Source of the DNA: an uncultured virus (IMG/VR IMGVR_UViG_2609459938_000002)
Taxonomy: Duplodnaviria; Heunggongvirae; Uroviricota; Caudoviricetes
Virus record (IMG/VR): IMGVR_UViG_2609459938_000002
Span: 1 to 64,000 of that record
Strand: one strand, 5' to 3'
Length of the DNA stretch: 64,000 nucleotides
Position numbers and translations under genes: made by a program. Each line of letters starts with the position of its first letter. Positions within the stretch are counted from its first letter, which is position 1. This document shows positions 43,682-57,054 of this stretch, one piece after another. The notes under the pieces were generated by a model. That model made no database searches. It was not told the origin of the DNA and saw nothing but the letters and a program-made list of their open reading frames with translations.

Positions 43682-44026
43682 TTATGGGGCTGGCGAATCG
43701 CCCCGCAGCAGCTGTGATACGCGAACGTCGTCAAGCGCTCGCAGGATAGGCTCAAAAGTTTTATGGGCTGGCAGTTTAGATACCGCAGTGATCACTTCTG
43801 TAACGGTGATGTCATCGCCGCGGGGGCTATAACCACCACCTGGGCCACGCTGTGAAATAACCAGGTTACCCGCCCGCAGCTTTTTGAAGATCTGCTCAAG
43901 GTATGAAGTAGACAGCTTTGACTCTTTACTGATGGCCGTCAGTGAAACGGGCGAGCCGTCATAGAGCTTATTCAAAGTGGCGGCGGCCTGGACAGATGCC
44001 AGAACGCGTTTCATTCCAAATTCCAT
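43682..44026 (-). CDS. Rrf2-family wHTH regulator
   Basis: SYLEQIFKKLR..SQRGPGGGY. Confidence 0.85.
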   Translation of the reverse strand: MEFGMKRVLASVQAAATLNKLYDGSPVSLTAISKESKLSTSYLEQIFKKLRAGNLVISQRGPGGGYSPRGDDITVTEVITAVSKLPAHKTFEPILRALDDVRVSQLLRGDSPAP

Positions 44027-44068
44027 AATCACTTCTCCGGCCGTAACGGCCATTGGTCAAAACTCGAT

Positions 44069-44263
44069 TCAAAAACTCACTGCAGGCTGTTGGTCGTCAG
44101 CCATGTTTTGTGCATTTCGGTAGGGGAGGCACTGGCCCTGTACTTTTTGTTCATCGGCGTTGCTGTTGCAACTGGCCTCTGATGGATAAACACCGACCAG
44201 AACATCAGAGCATTCACCAGTGAGAGCACAAAGGCTGATGACAAGGGCAAACAGGGTATTCAT
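44069..44263 (-). CDS. DUF1482/YebW-like protein
   Basis: LFALVISLC..GVYPSEASC..CLP. Confidence 0.75.
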   Translation of the reverse strand: MNTLFALVISLCALTGECSDVLVGVYPSEASCNSNADEQKVQGQCLPYRNAQNMADDQQPAVSF

Positions 44264-44382
44264 GCCTCAGCCTCAGGGTTTCCTTTCTGCGCCAGCAAGT
44301 AACACAGCTGGCGTAGTCTCACCTCGAACCAGTTCAGGCGGGTCGCCTGGTTCCCGGTAGGTACTCGGGCAAAATCCTTCAT
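44260..44382 (-). CDS. Small early protein (40 aa, MKDFARVPTG...LLAQKG)
   Basis: Read manually; GGAG RBS; ATGA overlap with next gene. Confidence 0.6.
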   Translation of the reverse strand: MKDFARVPTGNQATRLNWFEVRLRQLCYLLAQKGNPEAEA

Positions 44383-44421
44383 AGTTATCTCCAGTTAACT
44401 CAGTATTAGGATGTGGTTTTG

Positions 44422-44561
44422 CAATGCGGCGCCGGGTGCCTCCCGGTGACGGCAGCCAGTTAACAACTACCGCCGACAACTTTTTCCCCACAACGTGTGA
44501 ATAACCGCCATGTTTACTTTTTTAACTGTGTCGCGTGCGCATAGCCGCATTCACCGCATTG
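44422..44561 (-). ncRNA. Structured RNA motif, copy 1
   Basis: GCGGTG-AAT...TCACCGGGAGGCACCCGG-CGCCGC; covaries with copies at 55554 and 56047. Confidence 0.6.
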
Positions 44562-44653
44562 AAAAGCCTGATAGTCGTCATGCCTGTCTTTTCACCACTT
44601 CAGGCTCGGTGGTATTCTTGGCGCTCTCACACAGCCAAATAAAAGAGAGCAAA

Positions 44654-44968
44654 ATGTCTCGTAGCCCTATACCTGTCTTCTGGTACGAAAATCCCGCTCA
44701 CTACGAAGAATTCCAAAAAATCCTTTTAGATGCTTACGTCCTTCCCTTTGACTACCACGACTGGCGTATCCGCACCGATAGCATGGTGGAGCGCTACGAA
44801 AACAGCGGTATCCAGGCTGTGAAGGTGGTAGCCAGCACTTACGATTTCATCACCTGGTGCCAGGCCCATGGACGTGATATCAGTACCAAAAGCTGCAATG
44901 ATTACGCGGTCTCCGAATCGGGCCTCCAAATCCTGCGCGACAGAGAGTTTGATTGGGGAGACGAGTAA
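44654..44968 (+). CDS. Hypothetical moron antisense to the pL operon
   Basis: 104-aa ORF with GAGAG RBS, oriented against its neighbours. Confidence 0.65.
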   Translation: MSRSPIPVFWYENPAHYEEFQKILLDAYVLPFDYHDWRIRTDSMVERYENSGIQAVKVVASTYDFITWCQAHGRDISTKSCNDYAVSESGLQILRDREFDWGDE

Positions 44969-45297
44969 AAAGTAAATTTTCCCTATCTTGGATATATCTA
45001 TTCTCATAGTGATGTCCTATCTCATGCCTGTAACGCCGGCCGGCGGAACGTTTAAACCTGCTGCGAATTCTTCTTGTCGTCATCTCATCCGGTGTTTCGT
45101 ATGCCGCCGGCAGCTACTTCGTGGGCTTCCTGCCTCGATGACCCATACTGCTTTGTGTGTTTTGAAGTTTCACATGTCGTGAAATTGTTGTCAATACAAA
45201 ATGTGAAATCAAAATTACTCATTTTGTGTAATTTATTGGTAAGGGTACAAAAAAACCGGCTCAAGGCCGGTTATGCAATGCTTATTTTTTGATTGAG

Positions 45298-45681
45298 TTA
45301 GGTGGGGTTGTATCTTCCGCGTAGGTATTTTTCTACATACTCATCAATTTCTTTAAGTCTAAGCTCAAAGGTATCAATCATGCGTTCCTGTTCAGCTTCA
45401 GGCAATTGATTGAATAGGGAAAGAACCCTTTTTTGTTTGTCTGTTAACCAGTTCGATGGATCACTTTGTTCGCCAAATAAAATCATAACGGGCGTGGTGC
45501 CTAATGCTTTCGCTAAGGACAATGCATCATCTACACCAACGTTTCGATTGCCATATTCATAATTGGCGACACGCGACGCCCCAGACCAGCCACATAATTT
45601 CGCAAGCTGCCCTTGGCTCATTCCTTTCTCAGTTCTTAGCGCCTTGATGCGCTCACCGATTTCTTCAGCAAGTGTCTTCAT
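45298..45681 (-). CDS. DicA/RacR-like repressor (HTH, no S24 domain)
   Basis: HTH SQGQLA..VANYE; divergent from cro. Confidence 0.85.
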   Translation of the reverse strand: MKTLAEEIGERIKALRTEKGMSQGQLAKLCGWSGASRVANYEYGNRNVGVDDALSLAKALGTTPVMILFGEQSDPSNWLTDKQKRVLSLFNQLPEAEQERMIDTFELRLKEIDEYVEKYLRGRYNPT

Positions 45682-45691
45682 ACCCTCACTT

Positions 45692-45755
45692 TATCACGAA
45701 GAGTGAATATTGGTGATTCACGTTTTGTATTGACATAAATTTCACGATATGTGAA
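45692..45755. promoter_or_regulatory. oR operators of prophage 2 (TCAC-N5/6-GTGA) with TTGACA -35
   Basis: TATCACGAAGAGTGAAT and TTCACGATATGTGAA; similar site TTCACATGTCGTGAA at ~45169 (oL). Confidence 0.65.
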
Positions 45756-45782
45756 CATCGTTTTACACAACAGGAGAACTGT

Positions 45783-46007
45783 ATGAACTACATTTCGCAT
45801 CTACGGAAAAAAGCCAACATTTCGCAGCAAGCCTTGGCTAAGGCGGCTGGTTGGAACCAACCTCGGTTAGCCAACTATGAAAAATCCTTACGCGTTCCAA
45901 GCCTGGCTGATTCTCGTCATATCGTGGCCGCACTTAATACGTTAGGGGTTAGTTGTTCGCTTGATGATGTATTCCCTCCAGAACCCTCAAATCCTAGGGA
46001 GAAATAA
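45783..46007 (+). CDS. cro: Cro-like HTH protein
   Basis: 74-aa HTH, AGGAG RBS. Confidence 0.82.
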   Translation: MNYISHLRKKANISQQALAKAAGWNQPRLANYEKSLRVPSLADSRHIVAALNTLGVSCSLDDVFPPEPSNPREK

Positions 46008-46009
46008 AA

Positions 46010-46564
46010 ATGCAAACCATCTCTTTTGAAAATTATACCCAAGACATGGCGGTGCAACTGAAAACCAAAAATCACTATTCGCTGACGCGCCGCGATCGCC
46101 AGAAGTGTAGGGCTATTTTTGCCGCTGTTCAGGAATGGGAATCTTCGTTACCTGGTCGCGCGCAGGAGCACGTCGCACAGCAGGTGGCCGAACAGTGGGA
46201 GAAACAAAACGGTCGTGGCATCAGCGTTAATAAACAAAATCTGTACCGCTACCTGAAAAACGAATCTGGATCAGAGAAGTACACCAGTTACGTCATGCAG
46301 CTTTCAGGAGCGATCGCTGATGCGATGCCTATTGAGATTGCGCGCAAACACAAATTGAAACGTGGATTGACTGAAAGCGAGCTGGTGGCTCATGCAATCA
46401 AAGAGTGTAGCGAAGCGCACCAGGCAAAATTGCTTGGCGCTCCGTTACAAAAGTTAGAGCGTGAAATTCGGGAGGCAGCAATTGCACTTTTTAACATGCT
46501 TCCTGCAGATGCGGCGGGACCACTACTGGCGAGCATAAGCGCCGTAGCGCCACAGTTTTTTTAA
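46010..46564 (+). CDS. YdaT-like (CII-position) protein
   Basis: AVQEWE, KECSEAHQAKLLGAP. Confidence 0.75.
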   Translation: MQTISFENYTQDMAVQLKTKNHYSLTRRDRQKCRAIFAAVQEWESSLPGRAQEHVAQQVAEQWEKQNGRGISVNKQNLYRYLKNESGSEKYTSYVMQLSGAIADAMPIEIARKHKLKRGLTESELVAHAIKECSEAHQAKLLGAPLQKLEREIREAAIALFNMLPADAAGPLLASISAVAPQFF

Positions 46565-46608
46565 TCGAGTTTTGACAATGAGTACCGTACAGAAAATAGG
46601 GGGGCTTC

Positions 46609-47595
46609 ATGAGCATTGACGCAATGCGATGGGCCAAAAAAGTCAAGACAGGGAAGTCCTCTGCAAAAGCTGTTCTGACTTGGATGGCCGACATGTGCGG
46701 AGCTGATCTCTGTGCTTTTCCATCCATTCCTGCGCTGGCAGAAGCAACTGAGTTGGATAAGAAAACGGTCCAGTCGAGCCTGCAGTATCTGGTTTCGATC
46801 GGGCTTATTGAAGATACAGGTGAACGGCGTGGAAAGACTAAACAAATCCCGGTTTACAGGCTTCTTGGTGTGGAAGAAAGCGTTGCCGAAATTGAACACA
46901 CCCAAAAACGGGAACATTACCAAAAACGGGATCGTTTAAACGCACCCGAAAACGGGACTGTTTCCTGTACGCAAAACAACCAAACGATCCCGTTTTTTCC
47001 GTCAAACGATCCCAAAAACGGGATCCGGAATCTACCAGAGGAACCAAAAGATATAACCCCCACACATAGGGTTCTGGTCGAACCAGTTATGCCTGACTAT
47101 CCGAATCAACCGGGAATAGTTCCTGGCGAAACACAAGCATTCGGAAAATTTGCGATGTATTTCGGGTGGAAACCTTCCGAGGATTTTCCCCGACTGGCAA
47201 CGATTTGGGGAATGCCATTAAGACCGGGGATAAATCTTGCTGCCGAGTTGAGCAGTTTCATCGCGTACTGGCAGGCTGAAGGCAGGGCGTTTCACCAGGT
47301 GCAGTGGGAGCAAAAACTAGCAAGACATCTTAACCGTGCGGAAGTCCGCCAGAAAAAACCAGTGAATGGGGGTAACGATCATGTGGGAGTACGAGCAGAG
47401 CCAGCAGCATCCAGAGCTGTTCAACAGATTCGAGCCGCCCGTAAGCAACGGTTGCGAGTTGCAGGATCAGAAGGCCGTAGAAACGTCGTGGCACCTATGG
47501 GAAGTGATGGGCGAAATCTTTTCGAACCGATGGATTCTGAAGAACGGAGAGGAACCATCAGAACTCTGGATCGCTCAGATTGGGTCGATGAGTGA
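46609..47595 (+). CDS. Replication initiator (wHTH plus DnaT-like domain)
   Basis: [26 protein letters not shown]; internal iterons. Confidence 0.8.
46900..47027. repeat. Origin iterons CC(A/G)AAAACGGGA, direct and inverted
   Basis: Four direct copies and one inverted (TCCCGTTTTT) inside the initiator gene. Confidence 0.75.
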
Positions 47596-48037
47596 AGCCC
47601 AGATTACGCTTGTTTGCCGGCAGTGCATGGAACGTTGCGCCGCAGGCAGCACATGGCCGCCGGATCTTGCTGAGTTCGTTGCGCTGGTGTCTGCCAGCGG
47701 TGCTAACCCGTTCAATCTGACATCCGAAGCTGTAATGGCGGAATACAAGCGCTGGAGGAATGAGTCTTACCGATACTCGGGCAGCGACAAATACCCATGG
47801 AAACAGGATGTTCTGTATCACATTTGCATTGAAATGCGCAGAACCGGAGTTGAGAGGAACCTGACTGAGGGGGAGCTGAAAAAACTGGCAGAAAACTTAC
47901 TCACGAAATGGACCAAACACCTGGCTAACGGGTTTTCGATTCCCCCGATTCGCCGACAGCTTGAAGCGCCGCGACATCCGGCAGGGCCGACACCAGCACA
48001 GCTTCTGATGGAAGAGTACAAACGCCGCAAGCGGTAG
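47366..48037 (+). CDS. Replication protein P-like; start uncertain, overlaps initiator
   Basis: [12 protein letters not shown] motif; position. Confidence 0.7.
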
Positions 48038-48146
48038 ATTTAACCAACTGATCGCATACTGGCCAATGACCAAAACATTAACCCAAAAAGAGCAGATAGA
48101 AGCATGTTATACTAACATAAAGATAAAAATGGGTATGCTTAATTAT

Positions 48147-49295
48147 ATGAAAGTAATAGATTTATTCGCGGGAGTTGGTGGGCTTAGCTTAGGCGCTGCT
48201 AGAGCAGGGTTTGACGTTTCCGCCGCTGTTGAGATTGATTCGCATGCTATTGAAACGCATCATGTTAACTTCCCAAATTCACGACATTTTATGGAAGATG
48301 TATCTTCCATTGATGGAAAGGAATTACTAAAAAGTATTAATTTGGAATCACTTGATTGTTTAATTGGTGGTCCACCTTGTCAAGGTTTTAGTAGCATTGG
48401 TAAAGGAAATGTTGATGACGTAAGAAATGAATTATATTTTCATTTCTTTAGAATCATTAGCGAAATACGACCATTATGCTTTTTGGCCGAAAATGTGCCA
48501 GGTATTATGAATGAGAAATATGATCCAATTAGAAATAAAGCATTATCTTTAATTAAAGATGATTATTATATTTTGCCACCTTTGAAAGTGAAAGCTTCAG
48601 ATTATGGTGCACCAACAACAAGAACTCGTATATTTTTTATTGGCTATAAAAAGACACTTGGTAAAGACCTACTGGATATTAAACAATTCACCCCGAAAAA
48701 AGGTGAGCGTATGATTACAGTCGGTGATGCCTTAGCAGGCATTAATTTTATGGTAGAACCAAGTTGGCAGACTGATGCTGAGGCTTGGCATAAAGTAGAA
48801 CGCCATTTTAAAGGCTCTTTTTACGATAAATTGTGGGGTGAGATACCTTCTGGGGTTGGGGATAAAGAAACGCTGTATAAATTGAAACAGGGAAAAGTTT
48901 CTGGATTTTTGGGCACTCTACATAGCCATGAAGTTCAGAAGCGTTATAACAATTTACAATTTGGAGAGACTGATCGTATATCTAAATCTAAACGTTTAGA
49001 TCCTAATGGATTTTGTCCAACATTAAGGGCTGGTACAGGGAAGGAAAAAGGCAGTTTTCAAGCAGTTAGACCTATTCATCCATATCAACCACGTGTTATT
49101 AGCCCAAGGGAAGCTGCTCGGCTTCAAGGCTTCCCTGATTGGTTCAAATTTCACCCAACAAAATGGCATAGTTTCAGACAAATTGGTAACAGCGTTTGCC
49201 CTATAGTTGCTGAAGCAATGCTGTTACCATTAGCTGATCTGTGCAAAATGTTTAGTCAGAATTGCACCTTAGAAAACCAAGGTATTGCTCTTTGA
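48147..49295 (+). CDS. C5 DNA cytosine methyltransferase (in-frame upstream ATG at 48066)
   Basis: DLFAGVGG, GGPPCQGFS, ENVPG, RTRIF, RQIGNSV. Confidence 0.93.
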   Translation: MKVIDLFAGVGGLSLGAARAGFDVSAAVEIDSHAIETHHVNFPNSRHFMEDVSSIDGKELLKSINLESLDCLIGGPPCQGFSSIGKGNVDDVRNELYFHFFRIISEIRPLCFLAENVPGIMNEKYDPIRNKALSLIKDDYYILPPLKVKASDYGAPTTRTRIFFIGYKKTLGKDLLDIKQFTPKKGERMITVGDALAGINFMVEPSWQTDAEAWHKVERHFKGSFYDKLWGEIPSGVGDKETLYKLKQGKVSGFLGTLHSHEVQKRYNNLQFGETDRISKSKRLDPNGFCPTLRAGTGKEKGSFQAVRPIHPYQPRVISPREAARLQGFPDWFKFHPTKWHSFRQIGNSVCPIVAEAMLLPLADLCKMFSQNCTLENQGIAL

Positions 49296-50260
49296 TACTC
49301 AATAAAGGTTTTTAATTGATTAATTGTTTTGGGTTCTGTCTCAGAGAGATAGAATCCCATTGACTCAATAATTTCTTCAGGGGTGCTATTTGGAAGTTTC
49401 GATTCAATTTCAAACCGCTCTTTTAAAGACATCGTAGGAATACTTATATTTCTCGGCTTATCCCACGTTTTATCGATAAATGGCCAATGTTCTAAGCGAG
49501 ACCTTTTAAAGAAACGATTGATTTTTGATTCATCATTTTCTAACAAAATTCCAGTAGCTGTGAGCATTGTTTGGCCATCAGCATAAATAAAAGATGATAA
49601 TGGTTGCATAAATATATCAGACCTAGTGGATAATCCCATATTAACTGCTTTACGAATTGCGTGAAGTAATGTTGTTGGATACCTTTTTGAATTCGTATGA
49701 TCTGGAGTTATTGGATAAGGTGCATATCTATCTAATATGGAACTTAAATTTGATGCACGATAGTCTTGGGGAGTTGCAGAGTAAGGTGCGTTGGGATCGC
49801 GACCAAGCGTTTCAGCGTGAGCGTTAACAGTAACTTTTAATATGTCGTAGGCATTAAGTTTGTTGCAGAGTAGTTCAATTTCGCCTAATTGGTCGTTCAA
49901 CATAGAAGGCAAAGTGTAATCGAGCCATACTACATGCCGAGTTCTTTTTTTAAAGTTATAATTTGTAAGGAAATTTTGACTTGTTTGTGGCTCTTTCCCG
50001 ATATCTATACAAGAATTCGGCATATTAAATTTCTGACGCTTATGTGTATTTTCAACAATCTCAAGAGAAATCATTTTTTTTATTTTTAGTACGCTATGCA
50101 TTACTTTGAAATCCTCAAGAAAAGGTCCTCCAAAACCAGCGTATACATAGTCAGATATATTTTTACAATTGTTTACCTTTCCTAATAGATCGATGAACAG
50201 ATTCCGGTCAACGGCTTTATTATGCCTAAGATGGTAAGGTATGCTGTTTCCATTACTCAT
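49256..50260 (-). CDS. Putative SAM-dependent methyltransferase-fold protein
   Basis: YAGFGG glycine loop, ISLE, VVWLDY; overlaps the ATPase stop. Confidence 0.6.
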   Translation of the reverse strand: MSNGNSIPYHLRHNKAVDRNLFIDLLGKVNNCKNISDYVYAGFGGPFLEDFKVMHSVLKIKKMISLEIVENTHKRQKFNMPNSCIDIGKEPQTSQNFLTNYNFKKRTRHVVWLDYTLPSMLNDQLGEIELLCNKLNAYDILKVTVNAHAETLGRDPNAPYSATPQDYRASNLSSILDRYAPYPITPDHTNSKRYPTTLLHAIRKAVNMGLSTRSDIFMQPLSSFIYADGQTMLTATGILLENDESKINRFFKRSRLEHWPFIDKTWDKPRNISIPTMSLKERFEIESKLPNSTPEEIIESMGFYLSETEPKTINQLKTFIEYQRAIPWFSKVQF

Positions 50261-51704
50261 TTTCTAAAGCCTCTTTTAGCATTTTATCAAATGTTTTTCG
50301 CCCAACGTCAACAGCTGGTACATTAACATCATCGAATAGATATTCTGCCACTTGGTTAAACTCGTCAATTTCAACGCTATATTTTATGAGTTTGGTTTTG
50401 TTAATAACTTTTGGCAATGGAAGTGTGGGTTTGTATATTTTTCCTCCAAATGGCTTAGGATTCGCTTTGAGTTGTTTTTTAGGAATCATATTAATAAGTT
50501 CGCTTGAAGTCGCAGGGAGCGACTTATTACTCATCGATTTTATAGTGTTATTACTGTTACCGTAGGATTTCCATTTATTAGTAAAGTTAATGAAGGTTTT
50601 AAGACCTTCACGCATATAATCTTTTACGGCTAGGTAAAGATCTGAATTGCCATCAATTCCGCGTTTTGTAGTGGTTACGGGTAGTAAACTGGCATCATTT
50701 GAAGTGAATTTTACTACGCCTGCAATGCCAATAAATTGGGTGTGATATGCAGGTACTCCCGCTTCTCCCCACCCTGTTAATCTTGTTTTATCAGAATAGA
50801 TGACAACGCGGTCATTACAAATAACCGTCCAACCAGCCTTTTCGCTAGAAGTTTTAGATTCTAAATACTCTACATCTTCATCATCTGTTGTAAGATCTCT
50901 ATAGAACCCGACAGATAACTCTATACTAACTCCATTTTGTTCATTAGTGTAAACATAAGGAGTTATTCCATCCCCATTTTTAAAAGCATTTTCATCATAA
51001 AGAAGAGTTGTGAGGCTTGGTTTAATCACTTGGCCGTTTAAACTAATTTTAAAACCTTTGTTTATAACTATTGCGAAATGATTGGATATGACATTCATTA
51101 GATCTGATTGGAAAACAATTTTATCTCCTAATAGTCTAGATATACCATCTCTTATCTGGGTTATTTCAATTCTAGTGCCATTATGATTTAATCCGGTGGC
51201 TTTGTGTGTTAATGGCAAGTACCAATCACTATCATCGATTAACCATTCTGGGCGAATCTCGACTTCATATTCATCTTCGTCTGTTTTTGTCGAAACAATG
51301 GAGTGAGAACCCATTTTAAACATTGCCCTTTTCATACCAATACCATATACACCTATGGTGGGTACTGTTCTTTCTTTACCAAAATTTGTGTTACCTAATC
51401 GGAATGCCTCATTTTCCGCACGTTCAGCAGATATCCCGCCACAGTTATCCTCGATAATGAATTTATCCTTGTCCATTATCAAATTTGTGTAGAACCCGTT
51501 ATAGTTTTTATCGGGATTGGTTGATATTGATCTCATTGCGCCGTCAAGACAGTTATCAACAAGATCAAGTATTGCATCTGTAAGTTCTATATCTCGTGTC
51601 AGCATATCCACAAAAAACTTTTTCGCTGGCGAAGCATTAACTGGAGTGTTGTTCAATTTCATTTCCTTAGTAGATAATTGAGACATTACTGCTTGATAAT
51701 ACAT
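50253..51704 (-). CDS. GHKL (MORC-like) ATPase; start 51704 or 51662
   Basis: DLVDNCLDG, EDNCGG, GVYGIGMK, GTRIEI. Confidence 0.88.
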   Translation of the reverse strand: MYYQAVMSQLSTKEMKLNNTPVNASPAKKFFVDMLTRDIELTDAILDLVDNCLDGAMRSISTNPDKNYNGFYTNLIMDKDKFIIEDNCGGISAERAENEAFRLGNTNFGKERTVPTIGVYGIGMKRAMFKMGSHSIVSTKTDEDEYEVEIRPEWLIDDSDWYLPLTHKATGLNHNGTRIEITQIRDGISRLLGDKIVFQSDLMNVISNHFAIVINKGFKISLNGQVIKPSLTTLLYDENAFKNGDGITPYVYTNEQNGVSIELSVGFYRDLTTDDEDVEYLESKTSSEKAGWTVICNDRVVIYSDKTRLTGWGEAGVPAYHTQFIGIAGVVKFTSNDASLLPVTTTKRGIDGNSDLYLAVKDYMREGLKTFINFTNKWKSYGNSNNTIKSMSNKSLPATSSELINMIPKKQLKANPKPFGGKIYKPTLPLPKVINKTKLIKYSVEIDEFNQVAEYLFDDVNVPAVDVGRKTFDKMLKEALENE

Positions 51705-51881
51705 TACAAGTAATGCGCTTTCATAGCCAAAAAAAAATTTTTATGAATGAACGCATTGATTTTATCGAGAATCCATATGTTATAGATATCTAGGTGTAAA
51801 TATAATTCAATGCTAATTATAACGCTTTGTGACTATTATTTGATAATCCTTCTCGTTTGTACACATTAGGCTGAATATGAA

Positions 51882-51897
51882 CTGTATATAAATACAG
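51882..51897. promoter_or_regulatory. LexA box
   Basis: CTGTATATAAATACAG. Confidence 0.8.
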
Positions 51898-52071
51898 CAT
51901 TTGAATTTCACTTTTTCGCTCGCGACGGTTCTTATCGGAGCACCTCTTGTTATTTTCACGCACGAAAGAAACCGTATCGTAAATTGGTGTTTTCGATGTG
52001 AAATTATTATCCAATCAAGTTTTTAACAATTCGTGCTGTTAAGCCGTTGATCAATCTCACTCAGAAGTGTA

Positions 52072-52087
52072 CTGTATAAACATACAG
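52072..52087. promoter_or_regulatory. LexA box upstream of the dinI-like gene
   Basis: CTGTATAAACATACAG. Confidence 0.85.
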
Positions 52088-52107
52088 TAAAAGCAGCGGA
52101 GGCAATT

Positions 52108-52341
52108 ATGAAGGTTGAATTAACCATTGATCGCACAAAAGAACTTCCTAAGGGCTCGGTCCTGGCACTAGAAAAAGAGTTATTTAAACGACTCCAGAAT
52201 CAGTGCGATGGATGCCGTCTGGCTATAAGCCGTGCAAGCTCGGATAGGCTAAGTGTTTACGGTGGCGAAAAGGAAGTTGAAAATAAGGTTGAGGAAATCC
52301 TTCAGGATACCTGGGAAAGTGCTAACGACTGGTTCTATTGA
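52108..52341 (+). CDS. DinI-like protein
   Basis: ALEKEL, EEILQDTWESANDWF; SOS box. Confidence 0.88.
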   Translation: MKVELTIDRTKELPKGSVLALEKELFKRLQNQCDGCRLAISRASSDRLSVYGGEKEVENKVEEILQDTWESANDWFY

Positions 52342-52384
52342 GTAGAGGTCCAGTGGCTGACCTGGTTTATTTGAGGATTTTGCT

Positions 52385-52642
52385 GTGGCTAAAAAACAAC
52401 AAATGCCGAACACCGGCTATGTAGTAATCAGATGCGATGACGGGGTAATTGTTGCCCGTCTCACCTCTTTTCCCGTATGTGAGCGCGCTTTAATGTACCG
52501 TCGCGGTGATACTGTTTCGTTTATGCCTCTGCAGCCCGATGAGATCGTGGGGACTCTCTCGCTGTTTTCGCAGATGATTGAAAGAGCAAAGACCGGAGGG
52601 GGTTACCAAATTCCTCCGGGCTCTGTTACACTCCCGTCATAG
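52385..52642 (+). CDS. Hypothetical phage protein
   Basis: GAGG RBS; ORF. Confidence 0.6.
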   Translation: MAKKQQMPNTGYVVIRCDDGVIVARLTSFPVCERALMYRRGDTVSFMPLQPDEIVGTLSLFSQMIERAKTGGGYQIPPGSVTLPS

Positions 52643-52682
52643 GCCTGAACAACCTATACCTGCTGCGTCGCGGAGAGAAACC

Positions 52683-53075
52683 ATGACGCAAACCCCCGAA
52701 GTATCAAAATCCCATCAGACTGGTGCTCCTTCATCGAGCGCCGGTTTGCTTTCGTCTTCAAAACTAACTTTTCGACAGCAGGAAGTTTTCGATCTGCTGG
52801 TGGCCTACATCAATCAGCATGGCTACCCACCTACGCTATATGAGCTGGCCGATATGCTGGGCGTTAGCTCGTCTAATGCTGTCCTGTTGCATCTGCGTGC
52901 GTTAGAGAGAAAAAATTTTATAAAACTCTCTCGCCGTGTCTCCAGAGGAATTTCAATCGTCGGGCGAAAGGAGCCTATGCTCGCCGTGCAGCTGCTGCAG
53001 GAAATGATCGCTGAAGAACCCGGCGCGCGTGAAAGAGCGATTGAGTTTTTGCGACTGTTCGGTGATCAGCCATGA
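52683..53075 (+). CDS. LexA DNA-binding-domain protein lacking a peptidase domain
   Basis: LTFRQQEVFD..GYPPT..EL..LGVSSSNAV..HLRALERK..SRGI. Confidence 0.82.
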   Translation: MTQTPEVSKSHQTGAPSSSAGLLSSSKLTFRQQEVFDLLVAYINQHGYPPTLYELADMLGVSSSNAVLLHLRALERKNFIKLSRRVSRGISIVGRKEPMLAVQLLQEMIAEEPGARERAIEFLRLFGDQP

Positions 53076-53275
53076 AGAAAAGTTGGTTTTTACACGAGCA
53101 ACTGTCAGAGGCTGAGGCTACAGAGCTGGTGGAGCGATACCGTAAAAATAACTGTGTGGTTGAGAAAAGCTTGTCCAGAGACTTTGCATCGTGGGAGATC
53201 CGCGTGCTGTTGCCGGAATCGAAGAAGCCGCCACGGATTGACAGGACCTACATACAGAAGATGTGGAGGGACTGA
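53072..53275 (+). CDS. Hypothetical phage protein
   Basis: ATGA overlap. Confidence 0.65.
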   Translation: MKKSWFLHEQLSEAEATELVERYRKNNCVVEKSLSRDFASWEIRVLLPESKKPPRIDRTYIQKMWRD

Positions 53276-54306
53276 TGCGAGCTTTGCTTAACGTGGATAT
53301 TGCACGCCATCTTGGAATTGTGCTGCTTAAGCCGGGTAGTGAATTAATGCCGTTATTCGGTGCTGGCCGAGTTCTTGTTGAAATACCGCCGGCAAGCATG
53401 AAAAAGATACCCAGTGGACGTCTTCCTGATGCCCGGCAGCCGTTGCGGGATGATATGGGGATCAGACCTTTTTTCATGAAGAAGGCAGTTATCACTGCAG
53501 CTGGTGGGGTTAGTGCCCTCGAGTCATGGTTGCGCCGGCAGGTTAAAAACTGTCAGTGGACACATTCCGATTACCATCACCGTGAGCTCGTCCCGTTTCG
53601 CCATTCGACGGGTGTAATAATCGCATGCTGGCACTGTGATAATGAGCTGAAAAACCAAACGGAACAAACCCTCGATCAACTGGTAGGTGTTAATAACGCT
53701 GACTGGGTAATCGACACTGCCCGCATCGCGCTTGGCTTGGACGCTCAGCGGGCACTGTCACTGGCAGAGTTATGCTGGTGGGCGGTAGGCGCCGGGATTG
53801 GCGATGAAATTACAGAAGAAATGGCGCGCCGATCCCTGCGTATTAAAGACGATGGGATTAAATCGGTTTACAGGGAGAGTGAGATTGTTCCGTCGGTACC
53901 GGCCACCAGCATTCTTTCTCCCCGTCTCGAAAAAGCAATCAGGCCAACGGCAAAAACAACGCCGGGCAAACCTCTGGTTCCTGTAAACGTCGATCCTGTT
54001 GCACCGGCGACACTATTCGCGAGACCTAAGCGGAGCCGGTGGTTATCAGCTGACTTTATCTCATGGGTTAAAAAACAGCCGTGTATGTGCTGTGGGCAGC
54101 CTGCAGATGATGCACATCATCTTATTGGCTGGGGGCAGGGCGGCGTAGGCACCAAGGCCCACGATATTTTTACGATCCCATTATGCCGCAAGCACCACCG
54201 CACTTTGCACCATGACCCTGCCGCTTTTGAGCGTGAATACGGCACCCAGCCCGTATTAATTATTAAATTGCTGGACCGGGCATACTCGCTCGGCGTTCTG
54301 GCGTAG
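53275..54306 (+). CDS. DUF968/YdfU-like protein
   Basis: Homologous to 10801-11781; CMCCG..ADDAHH..PLCRKHH. Confidence 0.85.
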   Translation: MRALLNVDIARHLGIVLLKPGSELMPLFGAGRVLVEIPPASMKKIPSGRLPDARQPLRDDMGIRPFFMKKAVITAAGGVSALESWLRRQVKNCQWTHSDYHHRELVPFRHSTGVIIACWHCDNELKNQTEQTLDQLVGVNNADWVIDTARIALGLDAQRALSLAELCWWAVGAGIGDEITEEMARRSLRIKDDGIKSVYRESEIVPSVPATSILSPRLEKAIRPTAKTTPGKPLVPVNVDPVAPATLFARPKRSRWLSADFISWVKKQPCMCCGQPADDAHHLIGWGQGGVGTKAHDIFTIPLCRKHHRTLHHDPAAFEREYGTQPVLIIKLLDRAYSLGVLA

Positions 54307-54322
54307 TAAGGAGAAGAACAGA

Positions 54323-54925
54323 ATGACACCACGTCAACGCCGTCTACACCGTGCAGGATTAGAAACAGTGGCCGCCGCCCCGCGCAAAAGCTGGCTGGGC
54401 CGATTCACTCCCCTTAATGGCATTCAGTCCGCCTGGATAAAATCTCTGCTTACTGTATGGGGAGAAGGTATGAGAGGAGGTGCGGCCCCTCGCAAACCAT
54501 CAGGACATTCATGCTGGCGAGGTATGAAGGGTGATCAGTGGTCAGATAGAGCATTAGAGCGCTTTACGGCAGCAATCGAGCAGGCAAGGAGTGAAGGCTA
54601 TCGCGGGCGGCAGGCACTAAGCAGGGCGCATGCCATTTTGTGGCCAAAACCTCCAACTGTCGCCATTGACGCTGCGATCACTGAGGATGATGTTGAATTT
54701 GTTGAACGATGTGTACTGGCGATATTTGAAACGGGTGATCCTGTTTATCTCGTTGGCGTTAACTATTACACCACCCGCAAAAAAATCTCAGACATAACAC
54801 GGGAAATACAACTGGTGGCTCCATGGTTAACAGACAGTGAGGCCCGGAAAAGAGTGCGCTGGTGCCTTGAAATATTCAGAGCAAAAGCTTTCCTTTCTGT
54901 TCATAAGGCGATTCATGCGGATTAG
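54323..54925 (+). CDS. Q-like late antiterminator
   Basis: Position before late promoter region and terminator; WIKSLLTVWG. Confidence 0.65.
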   Translation: MTPRQRRLHRAGLETVAAAPRKSWLGRFTPLNGIQSAWIKSLLTVWGEGMRGGAAPRKPSGHSCWRGMKGDQWSDRALERFTAAIEQARSEGYRGRQALSRAHAILWPKPPTVAIDAAITEDDVEFVERCVLAIFETGDPVYLVGVNYYTTRKKISDITREIQLVAPWLTDSEARKRVRWCLEIFRAKAFLSVHKAIHAD

Positions 54926-55045
54926 CAAAAAGTGCTATGTTGCCTTTTTGGTATTGAAAATGGGCCAGAAAGTTAGATAATTCCTTCATGCTTGGCAGAG
55001 CTGCGCCACTCGGCAGCGACAAAAAGCGACAATCTGAATATAACG

Positions 55046-55070
55046 AAAACCCCGCCCGTGCGGGGTTTTT
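55046..55070 (+). terminator. tR'-like terminator
   Basis: AAAACCCCGC-CCGT-GCGGGGTTTTT. Confidence 0.8.
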
Positions 55071-55168
55071 GCTTTCCGGCGATACGACAGGGGTATTCGC
55101 GAGATGCGCTGCATCAATACCCCTGTCATATCGTCGTATTGCATACGCAATCTCACATGCTTCAGCAT

Positions 55169-55372
55169 TCACTGAGGATTTTTAGTGATTTTTTTGAAGA
55201 TCTCTAGGGCTTCGGTTGTTAACTGATCATGTTCGCTAAAGTAACTGTCACATGCTGCCTGCTTTTGAGCAGGGGATAGATTAGGGTTGCTTGTTAATTC
55301 AGCAGTTTTAGCTGCTATTTCTGCCAAACGTTCAAAAATCTCTGAAATTCTTTGGTTATCAGTAGATAGCAT
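55169..55372 (-). CDS. Small hypothetical moron protein
   Basis: GAGGT RBS; 67 aa; low GC. Confidence 0.65.
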   Translation of the reverse strand: MLSTDNQRISEIFERLAEIAAKTAELTSNPNLSPAQKQAACDSYFSEHDQLTTEALEIFKKITKNPQ

Positions 55373-55553
55373 TTTACTTACCTCGTATTTACCTGATATC
55401 AGTGAGTGCTACATTGAGTCAGGGCTTCGCAATAGCTTTAAGTATTAGAATGTATACAATTTAAGTGGGCGTTGTTGGCTTATATTATGGCAGAGGCGCT
55501 GGCGGTATGGTCAGATATTGACACTTTGAATGTTTGCATCATAAATTATCGAG

Positions 55554-55662
55554 GTGGTGAATCCCCCTATGCGGAGGGGCGACCAGTCAGTTACAGAAAC
55601 CTGTAAATGCAGCGCGGGCCATGCCGACTGGGGCATGCTCACCGGGAGGCACCCGGCACCAC
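55554..55662 (+). ncRNA. Structured RNA motif, copy 2
   Basis: GTGGTG...CCGGGAGGCACCCGG-CACCAC; TTGACA (55518) and TAAATT (55542) just upstream. Confidence 0.65.
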
Positions 55663-56046
55663 ACTAATGCCTTAACATAGTGACTGTAATGACAAAAGCC
55701 TTGCTCTTTTTGTCTGTCAGGCTATGGTTAACGAACGTAACGGTAAAAAAAGAAGGCTTTCCTGGTAAATCGGTAGCTCGGACTATTAGGTGCACCTTCC
55801 TTTCGTTACAGCCTTGGTTGCCAATTTTCTTCCCGCTTCTCTGGCGGTTTTTTTTATTCATAATCTGCCCAAAAAAACATCAAAGCAAGGAAGGCGATGG
55901 ATTCATTTGCAGGAACTCCTTTCCCCTTCAACGGAGACAGGCTCAAAGCAATAAGAAGCGGAACAGAAGGATGCTTTGCGCCGAAAAATTAGGTCATAGC
56001 GACGCATGGCATTGAAGAGACGTTATTGAGATGTTAAGTTTTATGG

Positions 56047-56149
56047 GTGGTGAATCCCCCTAGCGGAGGGGCGTAAACAGTTAGAAGCGAATCCTCAGCG
56101 CGAGTCACGGTGACTGACCAACGACTTACCGGGAAGCACCCGGCACCAC
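56047..56149 (+). ncRNA. Structured RNA motif, copy 3
   Basis: Same ends as copy 2 with a different middle; TTGAAG-17-TAAGTT upstream. Confidence 0.65.
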
Positions 56150-56341
56150 AACTTCACCTCAAGCCCACGTTAACGCGTGGGCTGTTCTTTTCCAGCGGAT
56201 CTATTCAAAGGCTGCGCATTTGCGTGGCCTTTTTCATTTCAGGCTCACGGGAATCATCATCGATACGGCTCGTTGTTAAATCAGCCCGATGGGCCTGACC
56301 CCCTACACGCACAAAGCACCCCGTTAATCCGGAGGTGGAGT

Positions 56342-56557
56342 ATGTATCGAATGGACAAGCTAACAACAGGTATTGCCTACGGAACGTCCGCAGGTAACGC
56401 GGGGTTCTGGATGTTGCAATTGCTCGACAAAGTATCCCCATCCCAGTGGGCCGCTATTGGTGTTCTGGGAAGTCTGGTATTTGGCTTGCTGACATACCTG
56501 ACGAATCTGTATTTCAAAATTAAAGAAGACCGGCGAAAAGCTGTGCGAGGTGAATAA
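56342..56557 (+). CDS. Phage-21-type pinholin with dual start (Met1/Met4)
   Basis: [18 protein letters not shown]...[13 protein letters not shown]. Confidence 0.92.
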
Positions 56558-57054
56558 TGTCTCCGACACTACGTAAAAGCGTTCTTGCTGCAGTCGGCGG
56601 TGGAGCCTTTGCGATTGCGTCTGCACTCATTACTGGCCCGACGGGTAATGATGGGCTTGAGGGAGTGCGATACGACCCTTATCAGGATGTGGTAGGTGTC
56701 TGGACGGTTTGCTACGGCCACACAGGTAAAGACATCATGCTCGGCAAAACCTATACCGAGGCAGAGTGTCGGGCGCTACTAAATAAAGACCTGAATACCG
56801 TCGCCAGGCAGATCAACCCTTACATCAAAAAACCGATCCCAGAAACTATGCGTGGGGCTTTGTACTCGTTCGCCTATAACGTCGGAACTGGTAACTTTCA
56901 GACCTCCACACTGCTTCGCAAAATCAACCAGGGTGACCCTAAAGGAGCGTGCGATCAACTGCTCCGCTGGACCTATGCCAAAGGTAAGCAGTGGAAAGGA
57001 CTTATTACCCGGAGGGAAGTTGAGCGTGAAGTTTGTTTATGGGAGCAAAGATGA
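56557..57054 (+). CDS. SAR endolysin (GH24, R21-like)
   Basis: N-terminal SAR helix; [18 protein letters not shown]. Confidence 0.93.

Follow-up and report, generated by a model that had tools for sequence, protein, structure and literature searches.

What kind of RNA is encoded by an element that stands three times in one viral genome, each time with the same scaffold around a different middle? The question arises from a stretch of 64,000 nucleotides of an uncultured Caudoviricetes virus (IMG/VR record IMGVR_UViG_2609459938_000002, positions 1 to 64,000; hereafter the window), in which an initial annotation made from the letters described three copies of a structured RNA motif and suspected that a functionally unannotated Rfam model might already cover it. 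The suspicion was right, and the model is RF02076 (STnc100). The gathering-threshold Rfam scan gave two matches in total, both to RF02076, at 55523-55717 (+) with 78.3 bits and at 56018-56189 (+) with 68.9 bits against a cut-off of 47, and the membership of these two late copies in the STnc100 family is secure. The third copy, at 44375-44583 on the minus strand, reached 35.6 bits (E 1.6e-4), under the cut-off of 47, in a permissive scan of 40000-64000, where the one further row was a sub-threshold match to RsmY (20.7 bits, cut-off 57). By the model made here and described below, the third copy is a homologous but divergent sub-type, sub-threshold in Rfam and devoid of the terminator part of the Rfam model. 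All three elements probably belong to the STnc100/EcOnc27/PasD-like small RNA (sRNA) family of lambdoid prophages of Enterobacterales. Since RF02076, itself functionally unannotated, covers the element, most of its novelty is gone by the measure that the initial annotation had set for itself; for this window the result is routine annotation and the find mostly ordinary.

The number of copies was settled by two counts. A covariance model made here from 80 relatives (R1), run over the window with filters off, matched at 98.2 bits (55554-55662), 75.9 bits (the minus-strand copy) and 71.5 bits (56047-56149); the next-best score in the window, 13.5 bits, was no copy on reading, and the 86-kb provirus record containing the window held no additional one. 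The 17-mer ACCGGGARGCACCCGGC also occurs three times in the window, at 44431-44447 (-), 55641-55657 (+) and 56128-56144 (+), with 0.00 expected from 100 shuffles. There are thus exactly three copies of one architecture at the positions first proposed. GGTGAATSC sites were considered as additional copies, being present seven times with 1.17 expected, but the four surplus sites proved to be no copies by the R1 scan and by reading.

The two late copies lie in the so-called moron slot between a Q-like antiterminator gene and the lysis genes, and each is an autonomous unit of promoter, core, tail and terminator, the layout of a prophage moron sRNA. The features of this region are as follows.

54323..54925, plus strand: Q-like antiterminator gene, upstream limit of the moron slot (phrog_753, E 6.3e-55).
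55518..55547, plus strand: sigma-70-type promoter of late copy 1, TTGACA-18-TAAATT (promoter scan, 10/12).
55554..55662, plus strand: core of late copy 1 (RF02076 78.3 bits; R1 98.2 bits; minimum free energy (MFE) fold).
55554-55559/55657-55662, plus strand: stem P1 of late copy 1, followed by AAU, P2 at 55563-55578, P4 at 55616-55640 and P5 at 55642-55656.
55583-55588 with 55626-55631, plus strand: pseudoknot of late copy 1, CCAGUC/GACUGG.
55591-55606, plus strand: variable hairpin of late copy 1.
55663..55855, plus strand: 3' tail of late copy 1, about 190 bases, running to an intrinsic terminator (terminator scan; stem 55833-55847, then eight T).
56012..56040, plus strand: promoter-like site of late copy 2, weaker than that of copy 1, TTGAAG-17-TAAGTT (read from the sequence).
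56047..56149, plus strand: core of late copy 2 (RF02076 68.9 bits; R1 71.5 bits; MFE fold).
56047-56052/56144-56149, plus strand: P1 of late copy 2, with the pseudoknot at 56078-56082 with 56112-56116 and a P5 loop AAGCA.
56162..56232, plus strand: two successive intrinsic terminators after late copy 2 and before the holin (terminator scan; stems 56162-56183 and 56207-56232).
56177..57054, plus strand: P21-type holin and lysozyme genes, downstream limit of the moron slot (Pfam PF04971, PF00959).

Both promoters had been named initially; that of copy 1 was recovered by the scan, while that of copy 2 is present but scores 7/12 by our own count and is absent from the scan list. The predicted start of late copy 1 coincides with the beginning of P1 (about 55552-55554) and that of late copy 2 is placed at about 56045-56047; the predicted 3' ends lie at about 55855 and 56190. 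The lysis cassette 3' of the copies comprises a P21-type holin, a lysozyme and an Rz-like spanin. Own promoter, rho-independent terminator and a place between Q and the lysis genes, the layout of the family, are found in both late copies and not in the third. No AsxR/AgvB-type convergent anti-sRNA partner was matched by Rfam at E <= 1 in 40000-64000, and on reading the terminators are not bidirectional-looking.

Expression of the late copies in the lysogen is partly shown by sequencing runs. Of 24 runs listed, 12 were recorded as RNA and contained part of the stretch, and four were aligned to 44000-57000. The bins over 55284-56151 were the deepest of this 13-kb stretch in all four RNA libraries, with depths of 52.9 in library X1, 841 and 1464 in X2, 121 and 124 in X3, and 25.8 and 12.7 in X24. 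Most other bins were far lower in X1, X3 and X24; in X2, contigs of depth ~500-590 also covered 52246-55283. In the run available as raw reads, first mates fell mainly on the minus strand at the late copies (25.8 and 12.7 versus at most 1.8 elsewhere); in most stranded libraries, first mates on the minus strand correspond to plus-strand RNA. The contigs of X1 and X3 both stop at 56157 and continue in adapter letters, at a point 8 bases beyond P1 of copy 2 yet short of the terminator stem, which hints at an RNA 3' end at this position. The region of the third copy had low depth (~2-35).

The same libraries and related phages delimit the core. The tail of copy 1 is 76-80% conserved in Klebsiella phages and is exchanged in other strains directly after P1, with joints at 55661/55665 to 55759/55760; in X2 and X3, a different sequence takes the place of some 90 bases that begin right behind P1 of copy 1 (within 55661-55760). 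X2 also contains another copy, whose promoter spacer differs and whose joint is at 55545. The homology boundaries of the mosaic therefore fall at the limits of the conserved core. The initial idea of an RNA scaffold with a swappable middle is therefore borne out and extended: the scaffold is conserved, and the 3' tail is swappable as well as the insert.

The core common to the copies runs in the order P1, AAU linker, P2 with a UNNGC loop, pseudoknot strand, variable insert, P4 and P5, the last abutting the 3' strand of P1. P1 reads GUGGUG/CACCAC versus GCGGUG/CGCCGC in the minus-strand copy, P2 with its bulged A reads CCC-CC/GG-A-GGG versus GCG-GC/GC-A-CGC, and the last hairpin, P5, is CCGGG-A(G/A)GCA-CCCGG. 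The three copies are mutually compensated in P1, P2 and the pseudoknot, in line with the compensatory changes first claimed. P1, the AAU linker, the P2 with bulged A and the CCGGG hairpin had been drawn correctly; the supposed arm closed by CAGT/ACTG had not, as its 3' strand is part of the loop of the hairpin that follows and the pairing is a pseudoknot. MFE folds of each window copy recover P1, P2, P4 and P5. Since the folding energy is unremarkable (z = -1.88, -1.00 and -1.28 for the three copies, not significant), the case for the fold rests on covariation among relatives.

Relatives were collected by two IMG/VR motif scans of at least 126 stretches each, the first with at least 122 distinct instances; the counts of relatives given here and below are among the matches listed. 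In an alignment fitted to the model (104 matches), 87.5% of cells were paired versus 74.5% in shuffles, and sliding the partners by 1-3 columns lowered the pairing to 41-48%. In this alignment, 20 of 27 pairs showed two-sided changes, a result matched by 0 of 500 shuffles. By stem, pairing was 90.5% for P1, 99.4% for P2, 70.8% for P4 and 99.8% for P5; a plain MAFFT alignment gave 90.5% for P1 and 98.3% for P2. As indels blur the plain alignment, per-sequence helix tests and the model-fitted alignment were used for P4 and the pseudoknot. The pseudoknot, a pairing of the P4 loop with the strand immediately behind P2, was first spotted in the listed relatives and then tested. The duplex energy with a sequence's own partner averaged -10.2 kcal/mol, versus -6.6 with partners from unlike sequences, and of 85 distinct sequences, 68 had an own helix of at least 5 bp and 45 one of at least 6 bp, versus 19.9% and 6.9% in the mismatched-partner control. 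At least 60 distinct helix sequences were seen, such as CCAGUC/GACUGG, AUCAGC/GCUGGU, CUGGUG/CACCGG, AAUGAC/GUCAUU and AGACUGAC/GUCAGUCU. Covariation thus supports P1, P2, P4 and the pseudoknot, and the pseudoknot pairing is absent from the structure line of RF02076. A search of the available articles, covering the main texts of the preprints, found no published description of the pseudoknot or of the early-leader form described below; the words pseudoknot, tertiary, early and leader are all absent from the preprint of Zhu et al. One article contains "STnc100" and "pseudoknot" together, and its tested set includes other RNAs (PK-repZ, ALIL), which may explain the second word (PMC12370729).

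The arrangement of P5 also bears on the initial proposal of a tRNA-like 3' end, according to which the element would be a tRNA-like RNA that is processed by RNase P or serves as a decoy for tRNA-directed enzymes. The four-way junction would suit such an RNA, P5 meets the 3' strand of P1 in the way a T arm meets the acceptor stem, and the copies of O157 adjoin phage tRNA genes. Nevertheless, the CCA lies within P1 rather than in a single strand and is not conserved, being replaced in the third copy (CGCCGC) and in relatives (CACUGC), the P5 loop has 5 bases against the 7 of a T loop, and the predicted transcript begins at P1 with no 5' leader to cleave. ARAGORN found 0 tRNA or tmRNA genes, and the Rfam tRNA and C4 models gave no match at E <= 1 in 40000-64000, which also speaks against an RNase P-type substrate akin to P1 C4 and P4 CI RNAs. 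A tRNA-like nature is accordingly very improbable.

P5 differs from the other stems in its mode of conservation. There were zero double changes in the 104 relatives; in the first sample this invariance was imposed by the search pattern, for which reason a second sample was drawn via P2. Among its 109 distinct sequences, 89 carried the exact 18-mer, 11 differed only in the two preceding bases, 3 were cut by the end of the locus and 6 had substitutions. P5 is also present in the E. coli K-12 copy in the Qin prophage, where the stem is compensated (CCUGG/CCAGG) and the AGGCA loop retained. Read across these relatives, P5 is conserved as sequence and not as structure alone. Such invariance raises the rival explanation that the conserved core is the working part, acting on a conserved cellular RNA-binding protein (CsrA, Hfq or another) by binding and titrating it or by guiding it, with the variable parts secondary. 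Besides the block kept in the P2-drawn sample and the loop kept in K-12, the P5 stretch CGGGA fits the MNGGA motif in a section heading of a CsrA preprint (bioRxiv 10.64898/2026.08.12.744399), the relative PasD2 takes part in the most abundant chimera reported on CsrA, and tandem arrays of units would suit a dose effect. Against it stand that binding by the core is putative only, that half of the GGA is within the stem and outside the loop, that the Hfq dependence of relatives is adequately explained by their terminators, and that PasD is tied to the STnc100 core through a structural comparison by another group. As the principal function of the core, protein docking is a possibility to which we give only a minor weight.

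Two sub-types were distinguished among the relatives. Type A has P2 of the form CCCCC-UNNGC-GGNGGGG; type B has GCGGC-UNNGC-GCACGC and a long P1. A promoter-like site of the layout TTGACN-17/18-TAnnnT ends 3-7 bases before P1 in 37 of 90 type-A units, where shuffles gave 6.35 expected, and a terminator-like site stands within 260 bases in 77 of the 90 units with enough flank, at a median offset of 34. Type B had a correctly placed promoter-like site in 0 of 19 units and a terminator-like site, mostly distant and weak, in 7 of 19. These terminator counts replace a stricter search (35/91 versus 0/19) that undercounted; in one type-B lineage (L007) a long-loop terminator hairpin was overlooked by the terminator scan. 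Some contigs carry tandem arrays, with 3-4 units ~250 bases apart and a terminator for each (IMG/VR contigs L029, L045, L085 and L017). The tails are highly diverse, with at least 71 distinct ones among 91 type-A cores and 61% A+U; a C/A-rich motif like that of GcvB targets was present in 6 of 71 and not enriched. A riboswitch-type aptamer governing the terminator behind it would agree with the compact pseudoknotted fold, the conserved junction bases and the short distance to the terminator. It has hardly any probability left, given that there is no conserved expression platform, the tails being unrelated between lineages, that the type of the third copy is mostly free of terminators, and that no riboswitch family was matched in the Rfam scans.

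The family is very common in Enterobacterales, beside lysis and toxin genes. The late type stands between Q and the holin in Klebsiella phages, in Fels-1, which has three R1 matches, and in this window, and 28 of the 29 matching phage records are Klebsiella phages. Of 5426 complete E. coli genomes, 2861 contain matches to an E. coli-type copy, at up to 12 places per genome. Among the first 80 of 124 genome loci under R1, 47 were full-length with at least 66 bits and titled with many genera of Enterobacterales, the exception being a contig of 388 bases titled Prolixibacteraceae; the remaining 33 were weak or partial, at most 23 bits, and mostly the 16-base hairpin alone. The 17-mer ACCGGGARGCACCCGGC by itself also matches genome contigs of unrelated GC-rich genomes.

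These contexts weigh on a further rival explanation, in which the element is a cis-acting leader that alters elongation or termination of its own operon, like the HK022 put RNAs or the lambda nut sites. Copies do head the late region and the early-left leader, terminators follow the late copies, and in 7 of 10 type-B loci with full flanks the element has a cI-like repressor gene on one side and early-left genes (Kil-like, excisionase and others) on the other; of the rest, 2 lie between terminase and portal genes and 1 beside terB-like and dnaB-like genes. A leader running from the late promoter PR' to its terminator tR' had been favoured by Klebsiella phage ST16-OXA48phi5.1, in which the element follows Q by about 270 bases with nothing between. 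As a general rule it was rejected, since the units carry their own promoters and the O157:H7 prophage copy (138 bits) stands ~2.7 kb past Q, beyond two further open reading frames (ORFs), a helix-turn-helix (HTH) protein gene and three tRNA genes. Cis action is also opposed by the array units with a promoter and terminator each, by the K-12 module, which comes after the dicF terminator and not before it, by relatives that are reported to accumulate as discrete terminated RNAs (PMC8550237, PMC4104026), and by HK022 itself, in which neither Rfam (20000-40751, E <= 10) nor R1 (whole record, E <= 0.001) matched STnc100. We therefore regard a cis-acting leader as improbable, though less so than a tRNA-like RNA or a riboswitch.

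The third copy is of type B and occupies an early-left leader, with the following features.

About 44418..44565, minus strand: divergent third copy (R1 75.9 bits; Rfam 35.6 bits, E 1.6e-4).
44533-44548, minus strand: P2 of the third copy, within a long P1 of ~14 pairs with one mismatch.
44522-44528 with 44457-44463, minus strand: pseudoknot of the third copy.
Within 44431-44447, minus strand: P5 of the third copy.
44260..44382, minus strand: 40-codon ORF (translation) that starts ~36 bases past P1 of the third copy.

The scan found no promoter-like or terminator-like site near it. It is flanked by a cI-like repressor gene (45298-45681, minus strand) and by leftward genes for a RecE-like exonuclease, an excisionase and an integrase. 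In related leaders Kil-like genes come next, and in E. coli K-12 dicB does: the K-12 copy (R1 66.2 bits, E 3.4e-18; NC_000913.3 1649451-1649585, L385 6452-6586) lies in the Qin prophage between dicF, which ends at 1649434, and dicB, which starts at 1649609, in an interval that bears no annotation.

Two further observations concern this leader. The sequence GUUAACUGG occurs twice on the minus strand, at 44457-44465, the 3' strand of the pseudoknot, and at 44391-44399, at the Shine-Dalgarno GGAG of the 40-codon ORF, either site being a possible pairing partner of the strand after P2. A translational switch by the GTTAACTGG repeat at this Shine-Dalgarno sequence was considered and rejected, as the second site is missing in relatives L014 and L020. 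In addition, a 72-codon GTG frame at 44273-44491 (-) has a weak PHROG hit confined to the RNA core, and on the strand opposite to the O157 copy (L134 3549-3674) RefSeq lists a partial "hypothetical protein" pseudogene; both ORFs called across the conserved RNA look like mis-annotations of it.

The reading that we favour, and consider rather likely though well short of certain, takes the three elements as STnc100-family RNAs, the late copies acting in trans and the third embedded in a leader. The late transcripts would start with the core at or next to +1, continue into an A/U-rich variable tail and end at an intrinsic terminator. Going by their relatives, they would be constitutive, trans-acting regulatory RNAs that associate with Hfq and possibly with CsrA. 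The conserved core, with the 5' end buried in P1, may serve as a nuclease-resistant scaffold or a protein dock, and the variable insert and tail as the parts that give target specificity; the "sRNA chassis" offered as one option in the initial annotation fits the published relatives, the Hfq-bound EcOnc27 and PasD. In the third copy, whose position is established, the same module would be transcribed solely with its early-left operon, and it probably affects stability, processing or translation of the small gene directly downstream.

Several points weigh against this reading. The conservation is opposite to that of a classical base-pairing sRNA, with a near-invariant core and variable presumed seeds, and a protein-binding RNA fits at least equally, so a protein dock or sponge stays alive. 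The third copy and 19 of 19 type-B relatives are without a correctly placed promoter, most of them also without a terminator, and thus a single trans-acting sRNA reading does not span all contexts. As to the data, contigs show neither ends nor strand nor level of an RNA, and DNA may occur in such libraries; the model-fitted alignment is biased towards the structure used for fitting; and in the plain MAFFT alignment, blurred by indels, only 60.4% of P4 and 48.7% of the pseudoknot were paired.

Three features of the family could inform experiments: the core forms a pseudoknot that covariation supports, the last hairpin is kept as sequence and not merely as structure, and early-left leaders contain the same module, among them the one between dicF and dicB in E. 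coli K-12. The pseudoknotted core, the sequence-conserved P5 and the re-use in early leaders together point to a protein partner and not to base-pairing seeds alone. Tentatively, the near-invariant pseudoknotted core might dock a conserved host RNA-binding protein, the family being phage-borne modular guide or sponge RNAs in which only insert and tail are diversified and the module is re-used in early-operon leaders before small, often toxic genes (dicB, kil); we rate this broader proposal as rather unlikely.

The surroundings of the late copies have features of their own. A second promoter-like site, TTGAAA-16-GATAAT (10/12), lies at 54954-54981, 29 bases past the stop codon of Q, and is a candidate for the true PR'. 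It is oriented towards two small ORFs of the minus strand, neither of them matched by a family, and towards a terminator of that strand at 55069-55046 (region 54876-55372). Directly upstream of Q, 52578-54306 encodes a protein with a LexA DNA-binding domain (phrog_362 repressor) and a DUF968/HNH protein, as in Rac/Qin-type prophages. Further upstream, in the replication/nin region, 48066-51704 is a low-GC block (chance hits of R1 there had a GC of 0.19-0.33) with genes for a C-5 cytosine DNA methylase on the plus strand and for a putative O-methyltransferase (PF20553) and an HATPase_c_3 protein on the other; the block resembles a moron or defence-type cassette acquired by insertion.

Among known systems, the late copies are most like STnc100/EcOnc27/sRNA103 of the Stx2 prophages of enterohaemorrhagic E. 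coli, with which they share sequence, fold, the slot between Q/PR' and the lysis genes, and an own promoter and terminator. They differ in lying in a Klebsiella-phage-like prophage, in the ~190-base tail of copy 1 and in having no detected convergent partner of the AsxR/AgvB type. Lambda 6S, a short, terminated, constitutive PR'-tR' transcript, is likewise made in the late leader. StxS, described as an Hfq-binding sRNA that maps to the 5' end of stxAB (PMC7873438), is another such short, terminated and constitutive RNA from the late leader of lambdoid prophages. Unlike these two, STnc100 units have their own promoters and can stand kilobases past Q, and no sequence relation was seen. The put RNAs of HK022 are structured parts of the early leaders of a lambdoid phage without N, whereas the late copies are terminated RNAs without homology to them.

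Published work on the relatives agrees with their being Hfq-associated sRNAs. STnc100 overlaps EcOnc27 (sRNA103), an Hfq-binding sRNA directly downstream of stx2B (PMC12711010, PMC7873438, PMC4104026), and eight Sakai prophages are reported to hold pairs of convergent sRNAs in the moron slot on the 3' side of PR' (Tree et al., PMC4104026). According to one study, variants of the STnc100 copy downstream of stx2 are among the predictors of severe disease (PMC12711010), and STnc100 was detected in vesicles of Shiga toxin-producing E. coli (PMC12370729). PasD1 and PasD2 of enteropathogenic E. coli (EPEC) E2348/69 are prophage small RNAs that are Hfq-dependent by Northern blot and RIL-seq (PMC8550237). 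They are likened to the window copies through a published report that describes them as structural homologues of STnc100 beside Q whose function is "not elucidated", and whose authors state that BLAST from STnc100 does not find PasD (bioRxiv 10.64898/2026.05.13.724894). The pair of PasD2 with the 3' untranslated region of yjbJ is given as the most abundant chimera on CsrA (bioRxiv 10.64898/2026.08.12.744399). PasE, a CsrA-guiding sRNA described in the same preprint, is alike in concept only, by analogy, as a protein-docking scaffold with a reprogrammable seed; it comprises 56 nucleotides, with a pair of GGA hairpins and a 5' seed that is single-stranded, unlike the present elements (bioRxiv 10.64898/2026.08.12.744399).

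The closest system to the third copy is the dicF-dicB module of the E. coli K-12 Qin prophage. The accessible part of a preprint on dicBF regulation describes cuts of RNase III and of RNase E at the 5' side of DicF and contains no mention of the module (bioRxiv 10.1101/2023.04.14.536235). The K-12 module follows the DicF terminator, unlike the window, where Rfam gave no DicF match in 40000-64000. In other respects the two correspond: P2 of the K-12 module has the form GCGGC.../...CGC, the pseudoknot is CAGUUAA/UUAACUG, and the module belongs, as does the third copy, to a repressor-controlled leftward operon, in which it stands directly before a small gene.

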